Counted from the first letter of the stretch, positions 36,222 through 51,177 are shown. The stretch: DNA of 62,441 nt from an uncultured Candidatus Sumerlaeota bacterium (GCA_964444305.1 CAYUGQ010000001.1:1-62441), one strand, 5' to 3'. Translations and numbers: made by a program. The notes: generated from the sequence alone by a model not told the origin.

Positions 36222-39200
36222 GTGGGCGCACAAGATTTGGTTGCTACTGACTATATAATCGGGATTGACCTCGGCACAACTAACTCTGTTGTGGCCATCC
36301 TCGAAGGGGAATCGCCCAAGGTAATCCCTAACTCCGAAGGCAGCACAAAGACGCCGTCTGTCGTCTCCATACTGGACGGCGATGAAGTTTGCGTCGGAGA
36401 AGTCGCCCGCAGGCAGGGTGCCGTCAACCCCACCCGCACCGTCTTCAGCGCCAAGCGGCTCATGGGCCGCACCCCGGAAGATATTGAAGCCATGGGCATC
36501 TACACGCCCTACGACCTCGAATCCACCGTTGACTCCCAATTAGTCATCAACATCGACGATAAGCTTTACACCCCTGCCCAGATCTCCGCCATGATTCTCC
36601 AAAAGCTGAAACAGGCTGCAGAGGATTATCTCGGCGAAACGGTCAGCAAGGCGATTATCACTGTCCCCGCTTACTTCGATGACCTCCAGCGACAAGCCAC
36701 GCGCGAGGCTGGGGAATTGGCCGGTCTCGAGATCCTTCGTCTCGTAAACGAGCCAACCGCTGCTGCTATGGCATATGGCCTTGGTAAAGAGCGCCAAGAG
36801 CGCGTCGCCGTCTATGATTTCGGCGGCGGCACCTTCGATTTGACTATCCTCGAAATTAATGACGGCACCTTCGAAGTCCTCACAAGTCAGGGCGACACCC
36901 ACCTGGGCGGCGATAACCTCGATTCCATGCTTGTCCAGCATCTTGTAGACGCCTTCCGTGACCAGAGCGGGATTGATTTCGAACCTGACGGGATGGCCAT
37001 GCGCCGCCTCACTGACGCTGCCGAAAAAGCCAAATGTGAGCTCTCTCTTGCCCGACAGGCTGTCATCCATCTCCCCTTCCTCGCCCAGAATGATGGCAAC
37101 CCCGTCCACTTGGATCTAACCATCCATCGCGACGATTTCGAAGACCTCATCGAGCCCGTTCTCCAGCAAAGCCTGGAATGCTGTCGTGCGGCCTTGGAAG
37201 ACTGCGATCTGAAGCCCTCGGATATCGACAAAGTTATCCTAGTCGGCGGCACCACCCGCATACCGCTGCTGCAAGAGATTGTAGAAGACTTCTTCGGTGT
37301 TCAACCCTTTAAAGGGATCAACCCGGACGAAATCGTGGCCCTTGGAGCCGCCACCCAGGCTGGTGTTCTGGCGGGTAAACTTAAAGAAGTCATCCTGCTG
37401 GATGTCACGCCCCACAGTCTTGGAGTGGAAGTAACCGAGAACCGGGTGACCCGCATCATTGAGAAGAACGCCACAATCCCTCTGAACGTTTCCCGCCTCT
37501 TTACTACGACGGAAGATGGGCAGGAAATGGTAACTATCCATGTCCTTCAGGGCGAGTCGGAGAAGGCATCCGAGAACCGTTCCCTTGGAAAGTTTACCCT
37601 CACCCAGATCGCTCCCGGAAAAGCCGGGGCCGCCCGGGTGCAAGTGACCTTCCATGTTAATGCGGACGGTATGGTGGAAGTCACGGCGGAGGATATGGCC
37701 ACTAACCGCCAGGAACGTCTGAAGCTTATCCTGGGCGAGAAAGATACGCTGCAGGCCGCGAGGGAACGTGCCCAGGGGGTAGCTTCATCCCGCCGGCGCA
37801 GACGGCGTAGGCAGCGTGATCGCGACGGCGCAACATCAGAATCCGAAATTCTCACAGGAACCACCCCCCGTCGTGCGGATGAAACCGGGTCCCGCAAGCT
37901 TCGTCCGCGCGAAAGCTCCACCGGCGGCCGTTCCCTGCGTCAGGCTACCATGGCTGAAGTGCCCGTAAACCCGGCCCAGGCTTCCCGTCCCCCTGTTGGC
38001 CCGATGCCGCCTCCGGGGCCATCGGAAACCGCGCCAAGTTTGCCTCCGGTTCAACCTTATCAACATGCCTCGGCTATGGCCGCATCTGCGTCTGCTGCTT
38101 ATTCCGAAGCTGAACCTACGCCAGATCCCACCACCGTCGTGGCCCCGCCGGAGATGTCGGAGCTCGCTGTTCAGGCCCTGACTCTCATTAAAGAAAAGGC
38201 CAACTCCGCCAGCGCCTACGAGACCTATCTCAAGGCTTACTCGGAGGTTAACGATTACGCCCGAAAACACCCTGATGACTTTGAGGTGGCGGAAGGGGCA
38301 GTTTTTATCCTGATGACTCTAGGGGAAAGCGATGGGGCGCGCACCCTTTTGAGCACTCTCACCAATCAGTCCAGCAATCCCACCCGCTATACGCACCTTC
38401 ATGATGAACTGGCGCGACGCTTTCCGGCAGACCCTTCGGTCACCGAGTCTATTTCTTCCACCAGCGGTACAAAGCAAGGTACCGACACGGCCATTCGTGC
38501 TATGGAAGAGATCGTTACGGAAACCAGTGGGACTTCTGAACAGATCAACCAGCTTGTTCAATTGTATCGTCGCAAGCTGGCCCATGGGGACGATCCGCCC
38601 ACTCAGTATAAGCTTGTTAATCTGCTTCTTCGTCTTGAACGTGTAGACGAAGCCATCAATATGCTGCAGAGGCTGGCTCAGCAGGAAACTTATCGGCTGC
38701 CTTCCCTCAAAATCCTTGGGCTCTGTTTCTGGCAGAAAGGTCTCCATTACCTTGCATGGCAGAAGTTCCAGCAGCTTCAGCCTAACGAGGAGATCAAGGA
38801 CATCCTGTACCGGCTCGCGTCGGACATGGAAGACACGGACCAGCTCCTTAACGCCAAGGTTGTTTTCCAGCATATTGTCAACGCGGATCCCGAATTCCGT
38901 GACAGTTCCAGCCGCCTTAAGAAGATCGAACAGATCATCCGTATGGAAGCGGGAAACCGGGAGGCCAGCCTTACTCCCAGCATCTTTCTCACCCTCAAAG
39001 ACTCCCGGTTTGTTATCCTGGAAGAAGTCAACCGGGGCAGTATGGGGATTGTTTACCGCGCCAGGGACAAGGTTTTGGAAGAGATCGTTGCTCTCAAAAT
39101 CCTCAACGATTACATGACGACTGACCCGACTGCCGTGGAGCGTTTTAAGCGTGAAGCCCGGGCCGCAAAGCGTCTTTCTCATCCCAACATCGTTCGGATC

Positions 39201-39785
39201 CATGACATGTTTGAGTATGGTCAAAAGAAGCTGCTCTCCATGGAGTTTATCGAAGGTGTTGACCTGAAGTCTGTCCTGGCGGATCGTAAAACGCTTCCGG
39301 TCCATGAGGTGGTCAGTATTGCCCGTCCTGTTTGTGACGCCCTGGCGTATGCTCATCAGCAATCGATTGTCCACCGGGACATTAAGCCGGCGAACATCAT
39401 GATCACTAACACCAATCAGGTGAAGGTGACAGATTTTGGTATCGCAAAGGTCCTTCTCGCGGGTGCGGATGCGACCCGGTCCGGATCTCAGATCATTGGC
39501 ACGCCCCTGTATATGTCGCCGGAGCAAATCCTTGGCAGTGAAGTTGATGCTCGCACGGATATTTACAGCCTTGGTGTCATGCTTTACGAAATGGTTGCCG
39601 GCAAGCCTCCGTTCCTTGAAGGCAATATCGAATACCATCATCTCCATACTATGCCTCCGCCTATGAACGATAGCGTGCCGCAGGCTATAAGGGAGATCGT
39701 CATGAAATGCCTTGAGAAGAATCCTGAAGACCGTTTTCAGGCGATTTCAGAACTGGGTGACGCCCTCGGCAAAATCGGCGATTAA
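36222..39785 (+). CDS. Hsp70(DnaK-like NBD + SBD-beta)-TPR-like-Ser/Thr protein kinase fusion protein
   Basis: Hsp70 signatures [24 protein letters not shown] and [15 protein letters not shown]; linker [12 protein letters not shown]. An Arg7 run and a Pro-rich linker span about 37.79-38.15 kb. Helical TPR-like repeats span about 38.17-38.93 kb. The kinase (about 39.0-39.78 kb) has [20 protein letters not shown] and MSPEQ. The start may instead be the TTG at 36237, which has better Shine-Dalgarno spacing. Confidence 0.9.
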   Translation: [1187 protein letters not shown]

Positions 39786-42979: not shown

Positions 42980-45061
42980 ATGTATACCGGTCCCGTGATG
43001 GAGACTCTGCGCGATCGGTTGCAGCGTATGGTCCGACCCAAACCATTAGCGGCTGCGGGGCTTGCGGCAGGTTTAATGGTTGGTGTCTGGGCCTGGGCCC
43101 AGCACGCCATTGAAGAGTCCATTCGAGACCTGACGTCGGATAGCCTGACGGCTCTTCTTCAATCCAACGTCGAGGCGCTCGAGATGTGGATTGAGACAGA
43201 GATTCTCGAAGTTCAATCCTGGGCCAGCGCTGGTATTACGAAAAATGCGGTGCAGGAACTGGAATCGCTGGCGCGGGCAAACGGCAGCAGCGAGACCTTG
43301 CTTCAATCGCCTTCCCTGGAACACTTGCGCACGTTCTTGAGTCCTGCTCTGGCCGAACCTGACGTTTTTGGATTTCTTGTAACCAACCGGGAGGGGCAAG
43401 TCATCGCGGCGGCTACAGACAAGCTCGTTGGGCGTCGTTTGACGCCACAGGGTCAGGCTCGCAACGCAGCAGCTTTTTCTTCCGGGTGGGGTATCTATAA
43501 ACCTGTAGATGGCAGCCTGTTGGTGGAGGATGTGGACACCACGGAAGCCATTCCCGTGATTCTTTCCGCTGCAACCGTATTAAATGATGCCGGCGAGCCG
43601 ATTGCCGCATTGACCATGTTTCTTGATCCGGAACAGGATTTTAGCCGTATTCTTTCGGTGGGTCGCCTGGGCTCTACCGGATCCACTTATGCTTTCGACG
43701 GCAATGGCATCATGCTGTCTGAGCTGCGATATGAAAAGGACCTGGTTCGGCTGGGGCTGGTAGAGGATAAGAACGATGCTCAGTCTACCCTCATTGTTCC
43801 TGTCCGCGATCCAGGGGGTAACCTGTTAGAAGGCTATCAGCCGGACCGGGATCTGGATGAAATGCCTTTGACGCGGGCTGTAGCGTCGGCGGTCCGCGGC
43901 CGTTCGAGAGTCACGCTTGAACCCTATCGAGATTATCGTGGGGTGGAAGTGGTGGGCGCGTGGACGTGGCTTCCGCGTCATAACTTTGGCGTTGTTACGG
44001 AGATTGAAGCCCACCAGGTGATGAACATTTTGCGGCCTTTGCGCCTGGCATTCTGGGGCATGTTTATCCTGATTGCGCTGTTAATGGCGGGTGTTTTTAT
44101 TACTGCTTATGTCATCAGTATCATGCGTCAGAAACAAAAAAGTCAGCGCGTGATTGGGCAGTATACGCTGTTGGAGAAAGTTGGCGAAGGGGGGATGGGT
44201 AAGGTTTATTGTGCCCGGCACGCCTTGCTGCGGAGGCCTACGGCTGTAAAGCTGTTAAGAAGTGGAGACCTGACGCAGGAATTGATTTCTCGTTTTGAGC
44301 GGGAGGTCCAGATCACCAGCCGTCTGACTCATCCAAACACCGTGGAAATTTATGATTACGGGCGGACCGACTCAGGGGAGTTCTATTATGTGATGGAATA
44401 CATTGACGGTATCACGCTGGCGGATCTTGTGGAAAGGCATGGGCCGGTAAAGCCGGCGCGGGCGGTGCATTTTCTTAAACAGGTTTGTGCTTCTTTGGTG
44501 GAAGCTCATGAAGAAGGAATTATCCACCGTGACATTAAGCCGTTAAACGTCATGATCTGCAAGCGGGGCGGGGACTATGATGTGGTTAAGGTGCTGGACT
44601 TCGGGCTTGTGAAAAATGTGATCAGTGACGACGCCCTGGAGTTGACTGGGAAGGATATCGTCCGGGGAACGCCTATGTATATTTCGCCGGAGCGCCTGCG
44701 TGATCCTTCGATCGCCACGCCTGCCTCGGACCTGTATTCTATTGGCGTTTTGGCGTTTAATCTCCTGTCGGGTAAAGACCCTTACCGGGGAGCCAGCTCG
44801 CTTGATATTGCGGAGCAGGCGCTCCATGCGGAGCCACGTCGTCTTCGTGATGTTATGGATGATGATTGCCCGGCGGAGCTGGATGAGATTGTATGGAAAT
44901 GTATGCAAAAGAATCCCGCAGACCGCCCGGCCAGTGCGCGGGAGCTGCTGGATTCGCTGGCCGCGATTCCTCTGGTGTGGACCCGGGATGATGCTGAGCA
45001 GGCTTGGATTACGGAGAAGTTTAACGGAAATCGACCGCCGAAATCCGACGTTCAGTTTTAG
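42980..45061 (+). CDS. Receptor Ser/Thr protein kinase: TM - periplasmic Cache-like sensor - TM - Hanks kinase
   Basis: Two TM segments flank about 300 aa containing Cache-like strands (GFLVTNREGQVIAA, YRDYRGVEVVGAWTWL). The kinase has GEGGMGKVY, AVKLL, HRDIKPLN, DFGL and ISPER. Confidence 0.88.
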   Translation: MYTGPVMETLRDRLQRMVRPKPLAAAGLAAGLMVGVWAWAQHAIEESIRDLTSDSLTALLQSNVEALEMWIETEILEVQSWASAGITKNAVQELESLARANGSSETLLQSPSLEHLRTFLSPALAEPDVFGFLVTNREGQVIAAATDKLVGRRLTPQGQARNAAAFSSGWGIYKPVDGSLLVEDVDTTEAIPVILSAATVLNDAGEPIAALTMFLDPEQDFSRILSVGRLGSTGSTYAFDGNGIMLSELRYEKDLVRLGLVEDKNDAQSTLIVPVRDPGGNLLEGYQPDRDLDEMPLTRAVASAVRGRSRVTLEPYRDYRGVEVVGAWTWLPRHNFGVVTEIEAHQVMNILRPLRLAFWGMFILIALLMAGVFITAYVISIMRQKQKSQRVIGQYTLLEKVGEGGMGKVYCARHALLRRPTAVKLLRSGDLTQELISRFEREVQITSRLTHPNTVEIYDYGRTDSGEFYYVMEYIDGITLADLVERHGPVKPARAVHFLKQVCASLVEAHEEGIIHRDIKPLNVMICKRGGDYDVVKVLDFGLVKNVISDDALELTGKDIVRGTPMYISPERLRDPSIATPASDLYSIGVLAFNLLSGKDPYRGASSLDIAEQALHAEPRRLRDVMDDDCPAELDEIVWKCMQKNPADRPASARELLDSLAAIPLVWTRDDAEQAWITEKFNGNRPPKSDVQF

Positions 45062-45079
45062 TTTGTTCTGCTGGCGTCG

Positions 45080-46042
45080 GTGGGATTCAAACTGAATACT
45101 TTCGCCCGAAGACTGCCCCAATATCTAATGCGTACGAGTGGAGACAGGGGACTTCAGCCCGGCGAATTTTATCGTTCGGATCGGGAAGACACAGTGCGGA
45201 AGATTCAATCGTGGATCGCATCCGATGGAGCCGCGTTGCGTTTCATTGCCCATCAGCCCTGCCATGGGCAACGGGCGTCGGTTGCCTTTTTGTATTTGCA
45301 TGGAATTGAGAGTCACGGTGGGTGGTTTGATGAGGCGGCGGATGAACTTTGCGGGCGGGGATTCTCTGTGTATTGCATGGACCGTCGCGGAAGCGGATTG
45401 AACCAGGATGACGCCGGCTTTGTATCGGGGCATATTGATTCTGCAGATATTTTGCTGGATGACGTGGACGGATTTATCCAGCATCTGCGTAAGCGTCATG
45501 AATCGGTATTTATTATCGGTCTTTCGTGGGGCGGGAAGCTTGCTTTGGCTCATGCTGTATCGCGTTTGAATTCTCCCGATGCGCTTATATTAATTACGCC
45601 CGGGCTTGTCGCTCAGGTGAGTCTTCCGTTATCTATACGGCTTAATATTTTAGCGTCGGCATTCGCGCGGCCGACAAGAAAATTTCCGATTCCGATTACG
45701 CCGGACATGTTTACGCATGACCCGTTTTTTCAGGAGCGAATCAAGCAGGATCCGCTGCGTTTGAGGTATGTCTCTGCTCGATTTTATCTTGAGAGCCTGC
45801 GCCTTGACAGACAGCTCAGGCGGTGCATTGGGATTTTGAAGACGCCGGTGATGTCGGTTTTTGCCCAGGAGGATATTATTATCGACAACGAGAAATCCTG
45901 TGAGCTGTTAAATCAGGCTTTGGGTGCTGATCGACATATTATCTGCTATGAAGACCAGCTTCATTCGATCCAGTTTGATGCGCCGGTTCGGCTGGTTGAG
46001 GACATTATCAAATGGTTGCAGGAGGAGAAGTTACTGGCATGA
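45080..46042 (+). CDS. Alpha/beta hydrolase (lysophospholipase/monoacylglycerol-lipase-like)
   Basis: YLHGIESHGGWF oxyanion region and nucleophile elbow GLSWGG. The start is uncertain: GTG at 45080, or ATG at 45128. Confidence 0.8.
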   Translation: MGFKLNTFARRLPQYLMRTSGDRGLQPGEFYRSDREDTVRKIQSWIASDGAALRFIAHQPCHGQRASVAFLYLHGIESHGGWFDEAADELCGRGFSVYCMDRRGSGLNQDDAGFVSGHIDSADILLDDVDGFIQHLRKRHESVFIIGLSWGGKLALAHAVSRLNSPDALILITPGLVAQVSLPLSIRLNILASAFARPTRKFPIPITPDMFTHDPFFQERIKQDPLRLRYVSARFYLESLRLDRQLRRCIGILKTPVMSVFAQEDIIIDNEKSCELLNQALGADRHIICYEDQLHSIQFDAPVRLVEDIIKWLQEEKLLA

Positions 46043-47187
46043 GTTCATCGCCGCTGAGGCTTTCGTCGTTTCAATGTCGGGTGGTGCAGATTCCTCTGCG
46101 GGTGAAAGTCAGTCATCACCTGGCGCAACGGGTTGTGGCCGAGAACGTATTGGTGACTGTGCGCGGGGCTGATGGCCGGGAAGGCTGGGGCGAGTGTTGT
46201 CCGCGAGAGTACGTGACCGGGGAGACGGTTGCGACGGTTGAGGAGGCGCTGGGCGGTCATTTTATCCCGCAGTATCTTCGTCGGGAATTTGATTCTTTTG
46301 AGGATGTGGTGGAGGCTTTATCAGAATCAGCAGCAGGGCTGGCTAAGAATGAGCAGGCGGCGTTTTGTGCCATTGAGCTGGCTGTGTTGGATCTTGCGGG
46401 CAAGCATTTCGATCGGTCAATTTCGGAGGTGATTGGCGGTTCCCGGAGGGACGATTTTCGCTATACCGGTGTGCTGGCGGCGGATGATCTGCCAGCGGTG
46501 GATTCCCAGGGGCAGCGGCTGCGGGAATTTGGGTTTACCACTGTGAAGGTAAAGGTTACGCAGGATCTGGAATTTAACTGCACGGCGCTTCAGACGGTTC
46601 GGCAGCTTTTTGGAGATGAGGCGAGTGTGCGGGTAGACGCGAACGGGGCCTGGACTGCCCAGGAAGCGATTCGGCATTTGAAGGGTATGGCGGATTACCG
46701 GCTGGATGGGGTTGAGCAGCCGGTAGCGGGAGATGATTTGGCGGGTATGACAGAAGTGACAGCGGCCGGGTTGACTCCGGTGGTGGCTGATGAGTCTCTT
46801 TGCAGCATGGATGATGCTGAAGGGCTTATCAAAAAGCGCGGCTGCATTATTTTTAACATTCGCATATCGAAATGCGGCGGGTTGATAAACTCGGCCCGGA
46901 TTGCGCGGAAGGCTTTTGACGCTGGCCTGAAGTGCCAGCTAGGAGCGCAGGTGGGAGAGAGCGGGTTTCTTTCGGCGGCGGGTCGACATTTTGCGGCGGT
47001 GTTTCCAGAGCTTGTCTGGCTGGAAGGGTCTTTTGATGCTTATCTTTTGGAGCAGCAGATCACTACGCCTGACATCACGATTCAGCCCGGGGGGCGGGCC
47101 GAAAGAATAACGGGGGCCGGACTTGGGATTCTTCCATTGCCGGAAGCCATTGAAGCAACATGCATCAGGCAACAGGAATTTTATTAG
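46039..47187 (+). CDS. Enolase-superfamily enzyme, muconate-lactonizing-enzyme (MLE) subgroup (dipeptide epimerase / N-acylamino-acid racemase / OSBS-like)
   Basis: KxK motif (TVKVKV), metal ligands in RVDANGAW, GVEQP and VADES, and a second catalytic Lys in NIRISKCGG. ATGA overlap with the hydrolase gene. Confidence 0.82.
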   Translation: MSSSPLRLSSFQCRVVQIPLRVKVSHHLAQRVVAENVLVTVRGADGREGWGECCPREYVTGETVATVEEALGGHFIPQYLRREFDSFEDVVEALSESAAGLAKNEQAAFCAIELAVLDLAGKHFDRSISEVIGGSRRDDFRYTGVLAADDLPAVDSQGQRLREFGFTTVKVKVTQDLEFNCTALQTVRQLFGDEASVRVDANGAWTAQEAIRHLKGMADYRLDGVEQPVAGDDLAGMTEVTAAGLTPVVADESLCSMDDAEGLIKKRGCIIFNIRISKCGGLINSARIARKAFDAGLKCQLGAQVGESGFLSAAGRHFAAVFPELVWLEGSFDAYLLEQQITTPDITIQPGGRAERITGAGLGILPLPEAIEATCIRQQEFY

Positions 47188-47207
47188 TCTAGAAGATTGA
47201 GGTTTCC

Positions 47208-48908
47208 ATGTCCTTAGCAGGATTTATCATTGGGGTAATGACGCGAAAATCTGCGGCCCGGTTTGAAGCTGCAACGCAAAATCCGGTGAAGGTTCAACAG
47301 GATCTTCTGGCGGAGATTCTTCAAAAGAATGCTGATACAGAATATGGTCGTCGGTATGGTTTTGCGTCTATTAAAAGTCATGAGGATTATGTCCGGCAAG
47401 TGCCCCTGGTAACTTATGATGATATTGCCGACGACATGGCTCGCGTCGCGGCGGGGGAGAAGGGGATTTTTACGGCGGAAGACCCGGTTATGTTTGCTCA
47501 GACAAGCGGCACGACGGGGGAGCCGAAGCTGATTCCTGTTACTCCATCTGACCAGGGAACGCGACATCAGGATGTGATGCGGACGTGGTTGTTTCATTCG
47601 AAGAAGGACCACCCGGATATTTTTGATCAGAAAATCGTGACGCTGGTTTCGCCGGCAATTGAGGGTTACACATCGGCTGGTATTCCTTACGGGTCGACTT
47701 CGGGTCATATCTATCGCGGAATGCCGGGCATTATCCGGCGGGCGTATTCGATTCCGTATGAGGTGTTTGAGATCGCCGATTACACGGCGCGCTATTATGC
47801 TTTAATGCGTATTTCTCTGCAACATGACGTGCGTTTGCTGTGCACCGCAAATCCTTCGTCGGTAATGAAAATGGTGGAGAAAGCGAATGAGTTCAGCGAG
47901 GAAATCATTCGCGATATTCACGATGGCACGTTTTCGGAAAGTCAGGATATTGAACCTGAGATTCGCGCGGTTGTGCAGAAGGTGCTGAAGCGGGATCCGC
48001 GGCGTGCTAAGGAACTGACGGATTTCCGTGCGCAGCGGGACGGCCGGTTGTTACCGGCGGATTACTGGAACCGGCTGAGCTTGATCGGTTGCTGGAAAGG
48101 GGGGACGGTGGGGCATTACATTGAGAAGTTTGAGCCTTGGTTTAACCCGGACCGGAATCGGCAGGTGCCGGTGCGCGACTGGGGTTTTCTGGCCAGTGAG
48201 CTGAGGGGGTCTGTGCCGTTGAGTGATGAGGGTGCGCACGGGGTTTTGAGCGTTGCGGCGAATTACTATGAGTTTTCGCCGGTGGATGCCGTGGAAGCCA
48301 ATCCCGATGATCCGACCAAGTGGCCTTTTCTTACTGTGGATGAAGTGGAAGATGGGGCCGAATACTACATCTTTCCAACAACTCCCAGTGGTCTTTATCG
48401 TTATGATATTAATGACGTGGTTCGGATTGAGGGCTGGTATAATCGGACGCCTCAGATTGCTTTCCTGCGCAAGGGGCGGGGTATGACCAACCTGACAGGG
48501 GAAAAGGTGAGCGTGAACCAGGTAATTGATGCTTTTGATGAAGCCATGACGGTTACGGGTTTACTGCCGGATCACTTTAAGGCGGAGGCGGATGCGGATC
48601 GAAGCCGCTATCTGTTCCGGGCGGAATTTTCTTCGTTGCCGTCAGATGAGGAGAAAGCTAAAATTTTCCTCCATTCGGTGGATCAGGCGCTGCAGAAACT
48701 GAACATTGAGTATGCAGAGAAACGGAAGTCTCAGCGGCTGGGGGCACCGGTGCTTCATATCATGCGTGAGGGCTGGTATGAGCGGGAGCGGAAGCGTCAG
48801 GTGGCTGAGGGAAAAAGGATGTTCCAGGCTAAGACAGAAGTTTTGTCGGCATCAAAACTGGCCACCAGTGCTATCAAGCCGGAGCTATTGGGAGTGGTGG
48901 AGTTGTAA
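47208..48908 (+). CDS. GH3-family acyl-acid amido synthetase (adenylate-forming; annotated in bacteria as 'GH3 auxin-responsive promoter' family)
   Basis: QTSGTTGEPKLIPVT adenylation motif, N-terminus FEAATQNPVKVQQDLLAEIL, 566 aa. A GAGG Shine-Dalgarno sequence is present. Confidence 0.8.
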   Translation: MSLAGFIIGVMTRKSAARFEAATQNPVKVQQDLLAEILQKNADTEYGRRYGFASIKSHEDYVRQVPLVTYDDIADDMARVAAGEKGIFTAEDPVMFAQTSGTTGEPKLIPVTPSDQGTRHQDVMRTWLFHSKKDHPDIFDQKIVTLVSPAIEGYTSAGIPYGSTSGHIYRGMPGIIRRAYSIPYEVFEIADYTARYYALMRISLQHDVRLLCTANPSSVMKMVEKANEFSEEIIRDIHDGTFSESQDIEPEIRAVVQKVLKRDPRRAKELTDFRAQRDGRLLPADYWNRLSLIGCWKGGTVGHYIEKFEPWFNPDRNRQVPVRDWGFLASELRGSVPLSDEGAHGVLSVAANYYEFSPVDAVEANPDDPTKWPFLTVDEVEDGAEYYIFPTTPSGLYRYDINDVVRIEGWYNRTPQIAFLRKGRGMTNLTGEKVSVNQVIDAFDEAMTVTGLLPDHFKAEADADRSRYLFRAEFSSLPSDEEKAKIFLHSVDQALQKLNIEYAEKRKSQRLGAPVLHIMREGWYERERKRQVAEGKRMFQAKTEVLSASKLATSAIKPELLGVVEL

Positions 48909-49006: not shown

Positions 49007-51031
49007 ATGATTGAACGATTCGTAGAACAGCTAGCCTTCAGTTTGGAAAAGTTCGGCACTGGTGCTTATGCCATCGTGACTTTGTTGGCTCTGCTGGAGA
49101 CGCTGATTGTTGTCGGCCAGTTCATCCCGGGCTCCATTTTCCTGGTGCTCGTGGGCTTCTTGTGTTACATGGATGTGTTTGAGTTTTACGGCATGGCCAT
49201 TTCAGTGATCCTGGCCCGGGTTGGGGGGGAATATATTAATTATGCTCTCGGGCGCTACCGGGGCCGGGCATGGTTTCATCCGGAAAGCCGGTTTCTGAAA
49301 CCGCGTTTTCTGGAAATGGCTGAGACCCGGTTTGCGGTCAGCGGGGCCAACCTGCTGGTGTGGGGGCAGTTCCTGGGATTTCTCCGTCCGTTTATTACGG
49401 TGGCCGCCGGAGCGGCGCATTATTCGGTGCCGAAATTTACGATCAGCGTTTCCATTGGAGCGATTTTGTGGGGGATGTTGCACCTTGTGGTGGGATATGC
49501 TTTCGGAGCAAGCTGGGAGCGCGCGGTTGAGTATCTGAAGGATTTCTCGCTTGTCCTCATCGTCGCCATTCCGGTGGCGTTCCTCAGTGGCTGGGCTGTG
49601 CGACAGTTGCTGCAGATGAGCGGTTATCTTTATAAGTTTCTTGAACGGCTGAACCGCCTCATCCGAAACAGCCAGTGGTACCAGTCGTTGCGAAACCGGC
49701 ACCCCGCGTTCTTTCCGTTCTTGGAACGGCGGGTGAGCCTGAGCCGAAACTGGGGCTTGGGGGCGACGTTTGGTTTTGCGTGTGCGCTTGCTTGTCTTGG
49801 TGCGTGCCTGGCGCTTTACTGGGATGTTCACACGCGAGATACCTGGTATGTGTTTGATCTGTCCATGGTGAACCTGCTGGCTCAGTTGCGCACCCCCGGG
49901 GCGGACCACCTTTTTATTATTATCACGAACCTCGGGGCGGTTCCGGTGGTGGCAGGGGTTCTGCTGGCGACGGCGGTGATCTGTTATTTTTGCGGCCAGC
50001 ATAAGAGCTTGTTTGTGATTCTGGGTTCGGTTCTGCTGAGCCTGGGGCTTGCGCTGGCGGTGGAATATATCTTTCAGAGGAACCGGCCGGATTTATCTGT
50101 TCGTCTGATCGAGGCGAATGGTTTCAGTTTCCCAAGCAGCCGTTCCACGGTGGTGTTTGCGCTGTTCGGGGCGATTTATTACTGGCTATGGAATCACCCC
50201 GGCGTGCTGCGGGTGCGGGCGGCGGTCGCGTTTCTGCTTTTGCTGATGGCGTTCCTGGTGGGATTCAGCCGGGTTTACCTGGGAGTGCATTACCCCAGCG
50301 ATATCGTATCGGGTTTTTGTCTGGGATTTGCGGCGGTGCTCACTTGTGGAACTATTGCGGCGAATTGGCCGCGCCTGAAGGATGTGGCGAGCCGCGCAGA
50401 TTATAAGGCGGCCTCTATCCTTGCCGTATATGGTCTTGGAGCCTGGCTCTATACCGAGGCACGGCCTGCAAACATCGCCGTGCAGCCGGTGAACGTCAGT
50501 GGTGGCATTCAAGCGGCAGAGCTGAACGATATTCTGCCGTATCTTCCGCGCAAATCGACAACACTTTTTGGTGCGGCGTATGTGCCGGTTAACCTAATTT
50601 TGCAGTCAGATCCAGCTCCGGCCAAGGAACTGCTGGAGGAGGCAGGATTTGATCCAGTTGCGTCTCAGGACTTTTTCACCATAGGGGTAGCAAATCCGGT
50701 TTTTCCGGCATTTGTTAATGGCAAGCCTGCGGCATTTACTTATGAAAAGCGGCTGGAGGGGGGGCGAGATGTGGTGCGGCTGTGGGCCACCAATGCGCAG
50801 ATTAACGGTGAACAGATCTGGGTGGGCTCGATCGTGACTCACGATCAGGAGCTTCGCTGGAAGATGGATATGTTTCAGCAGGTGCCAGATCTGGATTACT
50901 CGGCGGATAAACTGGTGAAAATCTGGGAGGAATTCAACCCGCAGAAGATCTCTGGCTTTCGTCCGCGGGGGCTGTATTCCTGGCGCAACGTGTTTTTCAC
51001 GCATGGCGATGCATGGTTTTTTGCCTTGTAA
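49007..51031 (+). CDS. Tri-domain membrane protein: DedA (SNARE-associated) + PAP2 phosphatase + LssY_C-like domain
   Basis: DedA N-terminus (LLETLIVVGQFIPGS); PAP2 motifs (FPSSRST..., SRVYLGVHYPSDIVSG); a soluble C-terminal ~190 aa resembling the LssY C-terminus. Confidence 0.78.
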   Translation: MIERFVEQLAFSLEKFGTGAYAIVTLLALLETLIVVGQFIPGSIFLVLVGFLCYMDVFEFYGMAISVILARVGGEYINYALGRYRGRAWFHPESRFLKPRFLEMAETRFAVSGANLLVWGQFLGFLRPFITVAAGAAHYSVPKFTISVSIGAILWGMLHLVVGYAFGASWERAVEYLKDFSLVLIVAIPVAFLSGWAVRQLLQMSGYLYKFLERLNRLIRNSQWYQSLRNRHPAFFPFLERRVSLSRNWGLGATFGFACALACLGACLALYWDVHTRDTWYVFDLSMVNLLAQLRTPGADHLFIIITNLGAVPVVAGVLLATAVICYFCGQHKSLFVILGSVLLSLGLALAVEYIFQRNRPDLSVRLIEANGFSFPSSRSTVVFALFGAIYYWLWNHPGVLRVRAAVAFLLLLMAFLVGFSRVYLGVHYPSDIVSGFCLGFAAVLTCGTIAANWPRLKDVASRADYKAASILAVYGLGAWLYTEARPANIAVQPVNVSGGIQAAELNDILPYLPRKSTTLFGAAYVPVNLILQSDPAPAKELLEEAGFDPVASQDFFTIGVANPVFPAFVNGKPAAFTYEKRLEGGRDVVRLWATNAQINGEQIWVGSIVTHDQELRWKMDMFQQVPDLDYSADKLVKIWEEFNPQKISGFRPRGLYSWRNVFFTHGDAWFFAL

Positions 51032-51177
51032 TACCTGCCCGGGGACAGACTATCGGAAAATCTGATCCGGGGGAATATATATCCCCGGGTCTGACTGTTT
51101 AGATCCTGAGAATTATCCCGCAAGGGCGCACGATATGTGCCCTTCAATAGATCTGGAAAGACCTGGAAAGAGCAAAC

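Follow-up and report, generated by a model that had tools for sequence, protein, structure and literature searches.

We examined a stretch of 62,441 nucleotides from an uncultured Candidatus Sumerlaeota bacterium (GCA_964444305.1 CAYUGQ010000001.1:1-62441), referred to here as the window. It contains a cassette of four consecutive genes encoding a Hanks-type Ser/Thr kinase, an alpha/beta hydrolase, an enolase-superfamily enzyme of the muconate-lactonizing enzyme (MLE) subgroup and a GH3 acyl-acid amido synthetase (Table 1). An original prediction made from the sequence alone had described four tightly packed plus-strand genes of these families, and both the open reading frame coordinates and the Pfam matches bear this out. 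Of the three junctions, two are as they had been given: the hydrolase stop and the enolase start overlap in an ATGA (46039-46042, -4 nt), and 20 nt (47188-47207) separate the enolase gene from the GH3 gene, whose ATG is preceded by GAGG. The junction between kinase and hydrolase had been put at 19 nt and is in fact 18 nt if the hydrolase is read from its GTG, or 66 nt if it is read from an alternative in-frame ATG, a start that agrees with the 304-aa product called in a sister contig (kinase identity 92%). Downstream of the GH3 gene, the next two genes begin after gaps of 98 nt and 146 nt. Promoter-like and terminator-like matches across the cassette region were no commoner than in shuffled sequence.

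Table 1. Coordinates of the cassette genes and of the fusion gene downstream of them, counted from the first nucleotide of the window.
Feature	Coordinates	Strand	Product	Pfam families
Ser/Thr kinase gene, cassette head	42980..45061	+	693 aa	Pkinase, dCache_1 (below cut-off)
Hydrolase_4 alpha/beta hydrolase gene	45080..46042	+	320 aa from GTG 45080; 304 aa from ATG 45128	Hydrolase_4
MLE-subgroup enolase gene, Arg variant	46039..47187	+	382 aa	MR_MLE_C, MR_MLE_N
GH3 acyl-acid amido synthetase gene	47208..48908	+	566 aa	GH3, GH3_M, GH3_C
DedA(VTT)+PAP2+LssY_C triple fusion gene	49007-51031		674 aa	

The kinase matches Pkinase at 166 bits and dCache_1 at 35.6 bits, the latter falling under the family cut-off of 45; PF02743 (dCache_1) is present in the precomputed Pfam lists for this protein and most of its homologues, and the window kinase is a member of a large family combining dCache_1 and Pkinase. 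Two putative transmembrane segments (approximately residues 22-40 and 357-382) enclose a putative extracytoplasmic dCache-like sensor at about residues 41-355, which leaves some 315 residues between the two hydrophobic segments. The kinase domain occupies residues 395-657, and as read from the sequence its HRD and DFG motifs and catalytic lysine are all intact. The hydrolase matches Hydrolase_4 at 137 bits and has a complete triad consisting of Ser149 (codon 45524-45526), Asp265 and His295, with the serine lying in the GLSWGG nucleophile elbow that had been predicted to be intact. Its nearest solved relatives are monoglyceride lipases, at an E-value of about 1e-10. The GH3 protein scores 254, 67.5 and 52 bits with GH3, GH3_M and GH3_C (PF03321, PF23571 and PF23572; cut-off 23.6 each), aligns with plant GH3.5, JAR1 and others at an E-value of about 1e-28, and retains the nucleotide-binding motifs TSGTTGEPK, ASE and YRYDxxD, which align with those of plant GH3.5.

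The enolase-family protein matches MR_MLE_C at 146 bits and also matches MR_MLE_N. We aligned it with Bacillus subtilis YkfB and with the dipeptide epimerase of Enterococcus faecalis. The original prediction had considered the KxK motif, the D/E/D metal ligands and a second catalytic lysine all to be present, and this holds for the first two: K170 and K172, D200, E226 and D251 align with K160/K162, D191, E219 and D244 of YkfB. It does not hold for the second lysine. At the end of beta-strand 6, where counting along the alignment puts K268 of YkfB, the window protein has Arg275 (codon 46861-46863) within the motif FNIRISKCGG, and K278, which aligns with the non-catalytic K271 of YkfB, is probably the lysine that had been counted in its place.

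The arginine is a property of a whole family. All 18 GH3-linked enolase homologues have it, and so do at least 90% of 141 aligned sequences, namely the window protein and 140 of the 150 best cluster representatives. On the family profile, each of these 150 reaches 326 bits or more. Even the best of the solved structures attain no more than 232 bits on that profile, and all five whose alignments were read keep lysine at this position, as do the enolase paralogue from the same genome (G000, contig C22, 3163-4173) and those from two other Sumerlaeia genomes, in which the motif reads NIKLMK or NIKLVK. Two further Sumerlaeota MLE paralogues carry tyrosine there (L088, G009:C21:154908-155864, and L089, G002:C402:19251-20075). 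The motif of these proteins is F/I-S-V/I-Y-x-G-K-x-GG, and they may constitute a second non-canonical MLE type.

Other parts of the active site differ as well. The DxD motif of beta-strand 8, which in dipeptide epimerases binds the N-terminal ammonium of the substrate and reads DFD in YkfB and DLD in the E. faecalis enzyme, aligns with EGSFD or EGS[FY][GN] in the Arg-type family, and H26, R31, R56, Y58 and E329 are conserved specifically within this family. When an AlphaFold (AF2) model of the enolase with a predicted local distance difference test score of 92.7 was compared with solved structures using Foldseek, the best match was 2p88, an N-succinyl Arg/Lys racemase (TM-score 0.90), followed by the N-acylamino-acid racemase 2zc8 (TM-score 0.88) and YkfB. 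Alignment and predicted fold thus both group this enzyme with those members of the MLE subgroup whose substrates are N-acylated amino acids, minus one of the two bases. The 1,1-proton transfer of MLE-subgroup racemases and epimerases needs two bases. Since the second catalytic lysine is replaced by an arginine throughout the family, classical two-base racemase activity is unlikely, and the epimerisation step of the original prediction, which depended on that lysine, loses its support.

Whether these genes are also linked in other genomes had been proposed as the check on the predicted operon, and we examined the linkage from both ends. The survey from the GH3 side comprised one genome per species and 65 GH3 loci with flanks of 10 kb. 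An MLE homologue was encoded within these flanks in 26 loci, mostly as the direct neighbor of the GH3 gene, and these loci are labelled as Binatia/'Deltaproteobacteria', Rokubacteria, Acidobacteria, Dehalococcoidia, Nitrospirae, Rheinheimera and Sumerlaeota, that is, at least seven phylum-level groups. The GH3 loci of Phycisphaerae and Planctomycetota in the same survey (32-38% identity) contained no enolase gene; the one locus of this type that was examined (L047) has a different alpha/beta hydrolase gene upstream. From the enolase side, 2183 clusters matched at E<=1e-40, and we read six genomic contexts (L099-L104) with enolases 49-61% identical to that of the window. The order Hydrolase_4, MLE, GH3, identical to that in the window, was found in all six. 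The hydrolases of these cassettes are 38-52% identical to the window protein, with GLSWGGKL, Asp265 and His295 invariant, and the GH3 proteins are 60-77% identical. As to the hydrolases themselves, several of those encoded in L101-L104 start with a hydrophobic segment that resembles a signal peptide or anchor and is absent from the window protein, so that localisation may differ among lineages.

A sensor kinase at the head of the cassette, which had likewise been predicted, is a recurrent feature too. Homologous Ser/Thr kinases head five of the six enolase-side cassettes, four of them with a dCache_1 match, and the kinases of L100-L102 match the window kinase over their full length at 36-42% identity. 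The GH3-side loci of species-representative genomes had led us to consider the kinase a lineage-specific neighbor, and these five cassettes overturned that view.

The association between hydrolase and enolase is also documented by fusion proteins, in which Hydrolase_4 is joined to MLE (P0196, P0198 and P0252). In other fusions the partner of the MLE domain is Haem_oxygenas_2 (P0122, P0125, L013 and L021); the genome studied here encodes no haem-oxygenase-like protein (PF14518), a frequent partner in other forms of the module. Within 41 Sumerlaeia genomes, MLE proteins scoring at least 200 bits occur in only three, which are those that encode a GH3 protein scoring at least 285 bits. Three further genomes lack such an enolase and encode a weaker GH3 match (140-151 bits; identity 28-30%). 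The other enolase matches, none of them above 130 bits, are all paralogues. We conclude that the four genes form a conserved functional unit and that their linkage is not due to chance.

The arrangement in the window is reproduced in the sister contig, L095, which derives from an independent sample and repeats the order of Hsp70-kinase gene, GHL10, kinase, hydrolase and enolase start, indicating that it is not an assembly artefact. The cassette is absent from genomes of the same genus and family. In two other Sumerlaeota, the GH3, enolase and hydrolase genes are present in a different order (L041 and L053) and are less similar to the window genes than copies from other phyla are. The divergence of these copies, together with the absence of the cassette from close relatives, points to horizontal spread.

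Genes that handle lipids recur around other versions of the module. The enolase-GH3-hydrolase core has at least one cultured carrier, Rheinheimera tilapiae KCTC 23315, in which a type I polyketide synthase with the domains KS-AT-DH-KR-ACP, a thioesterase, GH3, Hydrolase_4 and an Arg-type MLE are encoded co-directionally (L034, 2658-13924). A six-gene locus, L031 (414-7661), consists of genes for GH3, a methyltransferase weakly similar to the 2-ketoarginine methyltransferase, a DUF362/4Fe-4S protein, Hydrolase_4, an LpxL-type acyltransferase and MLE. In L102 (9860-10852) and L103 (9853-10845), a convergent gene for outer-membrane phospholipase A1 (PF02253) directly follows the GH3 gene. In L101 and L102, the kinase and hydrolase genes are separated by inserted FAA_hydrolase genes. 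Radical-SAM and MFS-acyltransferase-AMP-ligase genes that flank the Binatia loci were considered as cluster members and rejected, as they exceed the cut-offs of the NCBIfam models for BioB and Aas/LplT; they are probably housekeeping neighbors.

The statement in the original prediction that bacterial GH3 proteins are largely uncharacterised is out of date. In 2025, Rivera-Najera et al. (J Biol Chem) described the GH3-family protein OlsH, which uses ATP and Mg2+ to convert free fatty acid into N-acyl ornithine, and the alpha/beta hydrolase OlsI, which adds a second acyl chain; in Singulisphaera acidiphila, olsH and olsI share an operon with OlsG (Sinac_1599-1601) (PMC12493201). OlsH is the only characterised bacterial GH3 protein, and it uses fatty acids (PMC12493201). 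Neither that paper nor a 2026 review mentions a racemase, epimerase or enolase partner, and full-text literature searches for a GH3 and muconate-lactonizing/enolase module, or for GH3 with haem-oxygenase-like enzymes, gave nothing relevant.

The gene order and spacing, domain identities, status of the catalytic residues, conserved linkage and fusion proteins are established here, and the cassette, conserved and undescribed, is a putative variant of GH3-based acyl-amino-acid synthesis. We consider it moderately probable that the cassette encodes a pathway under signal control: a lipase would free an acid, the GH3 enzyme would make an N-acyl amino acid from it and the Arg-type enolase would modify the conjugate. 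In the first step, the hydrolase, which is akin to monoacylglycerol lipases and lysophospholipases, would cleave a lipid ester to set free its carboxylic acid, fatty or other, or alternatively might O-acylate in the manner of OlsI; in other versions of the module, a post-polyketide synthase thioesterase or the adjoining phospholipase A1 could supply the acid. The GH3 enzyme would then adenylate this acid with ATP and Mg2+ and pass it on to an amino acid, acylating the amino group, as OlsH does with ornithine. In the third step, the Mg2+ site of the enolase (D200/E226/D251) is predicted to bind the conjugate by its free alpha-carboxylate, and a lysine of the KxK motif would take the alpha-proton. 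One-base resolution of the resulting enolate (for instance by beta-elimination), or some other non-classical route, is proposed as the probable outcome because the lysine of the opposite face is a conserved arginine, and any role given to Arg275 is conjecture. Through its putative extracytoplasmic dCache sensor, the kinase may place the pathway under the control of a signal from the periplasm or from outside the cell.

The most plausible product is an N-acyl amino acid formed by GH3 and related to lipids or to the envelope, in keeping with what had been suggested from the sequence. It has a precedent in OlsH/OlsI and is supported by the recurring lipid-handling neighbors, which are the LpxL-type acyltransferase, the phospholipase A1 and the polyketide synthase with its thioesterase.

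Several observations weigh against this pathway. The analogy with Ols lipids holds by family only, as both proteins fall outside the curated OlsH and OlsI models: the window GH3 scores 83.6 bits with the OlsH model NF052613, for which the cut-off is 620, and the window hydrolase has no match at E<=0.01 to the OlsI model NF052614 (cut-off 385 bits), a model that was present in the searched library, where another protein matched it. In the other Sumerlaeota copies, L041 and L053, the nucleophilic serine of the hydrolase is replaced by cysteine, and many MLE-GH3 loci, such as those of the Binatia and Rokubacteria types, lack the hydrolase altogether. The enolase could also act before GH3, on the acid substrate. 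As regards the kinase, a GntR-type regulator takes its place in the sixth enolase-side cassette, L099, and a close orthologue of the window kinase (66-68% identity; L097, 9001-10998, and L098, 3950-5947), the closest outside the sister contig, is encoded without the cassette, among genes for TPR, Amidase_3, NusB and Der proteins. The run accession of L099, whose GH3 protein is 77% identical to that of the window, is numbered similarly to that of the L097/L098 kinase locus, and kinase and cassette may be unlinked in that relative.

A more far-reaching form of the proposed pathway, which we advance only tentatively, is that it is both widespread and undescribed, that it is defined by the Arg-type enolase and GH3, frequently accompanied by a Hydrolase_4 lipase and a dCache Ser/Thr kinase, and that the enolase, with arginine in place of lysine, performs a non-racemase reaction on a GH3-made lipoamino acid, for example beta-elimination to a dehydro-amino-acid conjugate or one-way stereoinversion.

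The version given in the original prediction is that the enolase is a true racemase or epimerase of N-acyl amino acids or dipeptides, and that its product, an N-acyl-D-amino acid, is then cleaved by the hydrolase. The closest solved relatives in sequence and fold are indeed N-succinyl- and N-acyl-amino-acid racemases and dipeptide epimerases, and the KxK motif and metal ligands are intact. However, all GH3-linked homologues and at least 90% of the wider alignment have arginine for the second lysine that the paralogue from the same genome and the five best-matching PDB chains (those whose alignments were read) keep, and EGS[FY][GDN] stands where dipeptide epimerases have DxD, which makes this version doubtful.

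It is similarly unlikely that the cassette encodes an aminolipid pathway of the OlsH/OlsI type, in which GH3 would use a 3-hydroxy fatty acid to form a lyso-aminolipid, the hydrolase would serve as O-acyltransferase for the second chain and the enolase would tailor the head group. An operon combining GH3 with an alpha/beta hydrolase is the published OlsH/OlsI design (PMC12493201), and in L031 an LpxL-type acyltransferase, which would form an acyloxyacyl group, is encoded along with a methyltransferase between GH3 and MLE. On the other hand, the window hydrolase does not match the OlsI model and has lipases, not characterised acyltransferases, as its nearest relatives, and the window GH3, besides falling far under the OlsH cut-off, shares just 23% identity with an OlsH-like protein whose own score on the OlsH model is 438 bits. 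For the GH3 relatives L007 and L008, this model gives 106 and 89 bits. Orthology with OlsH or OlsI was rejected on the curated model scores. The alpha/beta hydrolase encoded beside the OlsH-like GH3 (L087) was tried as a proxy for OlsI; it is itself far under the OlsI cut-off, so that the comparison carries little weight.

Less likely still is a non-lipid conjugate, in which the acid that GH3 joins to an amino acid would be a small one, for instance aromatic or dicarboxylic, so that a soluble signal or catabolic intermediate is made or recycled. Plant GH3 enzymes use indole-3-acetic acid, jasmonic acid and benzoates; the FAA_hydrolase genes inserted in two cassettes are compatible with such a substrate; a dCache kinase suggests small-molecule sensing; and the conserved enolase arginines R31, R56, R198 and R275 could bind an acidic substrate. 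The recurring lipid-handling neighbors (lipase-type hydrolase, phospholipase A1, LpxL-type acyltransferase and polyketide synthase with thioesterase) argue against it, as does the use of fatty acids by the only bacterial GH3 protein characterised (PMC12493201). Finally, accidental adjacency of genes with unrelated functions is effectively refuted by the conserved linkage, with the window order in six independent contexts, the MLE-GH3 pair in at least seven phylum-level groups and the hydrolase-enolase fusion proteins.

The genes downstream of the cassette do not belong to the proposed lipase, GH3 and enolase pathway. The original prediction had let the array continue into the DedA/PAP2/LssY fusion gene and a TylF methyltransferase gene, and this is not borne out. 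Full-length orthologues of the fusion protein (33-60% identity) occur in nine of 11 Sumerlaeaceae genomes, none of which encodes GH3, and the fusion gene was adjacent to the cassette in none of the six enolase-side contexts. In a genome of the same genus (G001), its upstream neighbor is a divergent gene that is unrelated, and a different methyltransferase is encoded on its downstream side. This genomic context, the distribution and the lack of adjacency exclude the fusion and TylF as pathway members, and the fusion looks like a family-wide housekeeping envelope gene that is independent of the GH3 cassette. It matches the UptA and undecaprenyl-diphosphatase models weakly and, judging from these matches, possibly has a role in undecaprenyl-phosphate recycling. 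Within the 146-nt spacer between the fusion and TylF methyltransferase genes, a possible terminator lies at 51040-51100, in the form of an inverted repeat whose GC-rich arms (CCGGGG...CCCCGG) flank an AT-rich loop of some 10 nt; the terminator scan considered loops of up to 8 nt and so passed over it. Upstream of the cassette, a gene at 36222-39785 encodes a fusion of 1187 aa combining Hsp70/MreB-like, TPR and Pkinase domains, and the same synteny is found in the independent sample (L095, 338-3901).

Bacterial GH3 ligases were first shown to make membrane aminolipids in 2025, and for one clade only, that of OlsH. The cassette described here is a second GH3-based design, far more widely scattered than OlsH. 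It predicts a family of acyl-amino-acid products, lipids or signals, under a receptor kinase, and the conserved arginine in place of a textbook catalytic lysine predicts new chemistry in the well-studied enolase superfamily. If the non-racemase reaction is the true one, a new, signal-regulated class of products would result, either envelope lipids or signals derived from lipids. The existence of a cultured carrier, Rheinheimera tilapiae KCTC 23315, as a tractable model for the three core enzymes makes the question directly testable.

Among known systems, the Ols pathway resembles the cassette in that a GH3 ligase and an alpha/beta hydrolase are encoded in one operon, a putative one in the case of the cassette; the adenylation motifs are kept, and ATP-dependent N-acylation is Ols chemistry. 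The cassette differs in its low OlsH model score and low identity to the OlsH-like protein, in a hydrolase of the Hydrolase_4/monoglyceride lipase type without an OlsI match, in the absence of OlsG, and in an obligatory enolase partner and a sensor kinase, neither of which is found in Sinac_1599-1601 as that operon was described. Plant GH3 enzymes (JAR1, GH3.5, GH3.6 and GH3.12; 4epl, 5kod, 7vka and 4epm) have the three-domain architecture and adenylation motifs in common with the window GH3, but their similarity to it is limited to the E-value given above over most of the length, and the window protein is bacterial and encoded in a putative operon with hydrolase, enolase and kinase. The monoacylglycerol lipases and lysophospholipases of Hydrolase_4 (6qe2, 6eic and 3hju) share the alpha/beta fold, the GxSxG elbow and the Ser-Asp-His triad with the window hydrolase; the similarity is weak, however, and the hydrolase is set apart by enolase fusions in some organisms and by a cysteine nucleophile in some versions of the module. 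The MLE racemases and epimerases (2p88, 2zc8, 1sja, 1jpm/YkfB and 3jva) are the best sequence and structure matches of the window enolase, with the same fold (TM-score 0.85-0.90), the KxK motif and the D/E/D ligands, and they act on N-acylated amino acids, which is the type of product expected from GH3. The window family is distinguished from them by its conserved arginine within FN[ILV]R[ILV][SA]KCGG, by EGS[FY][GDN] in place of DxD, by the invariance of its family-specific residues and by a gene that is always linked to GH3.

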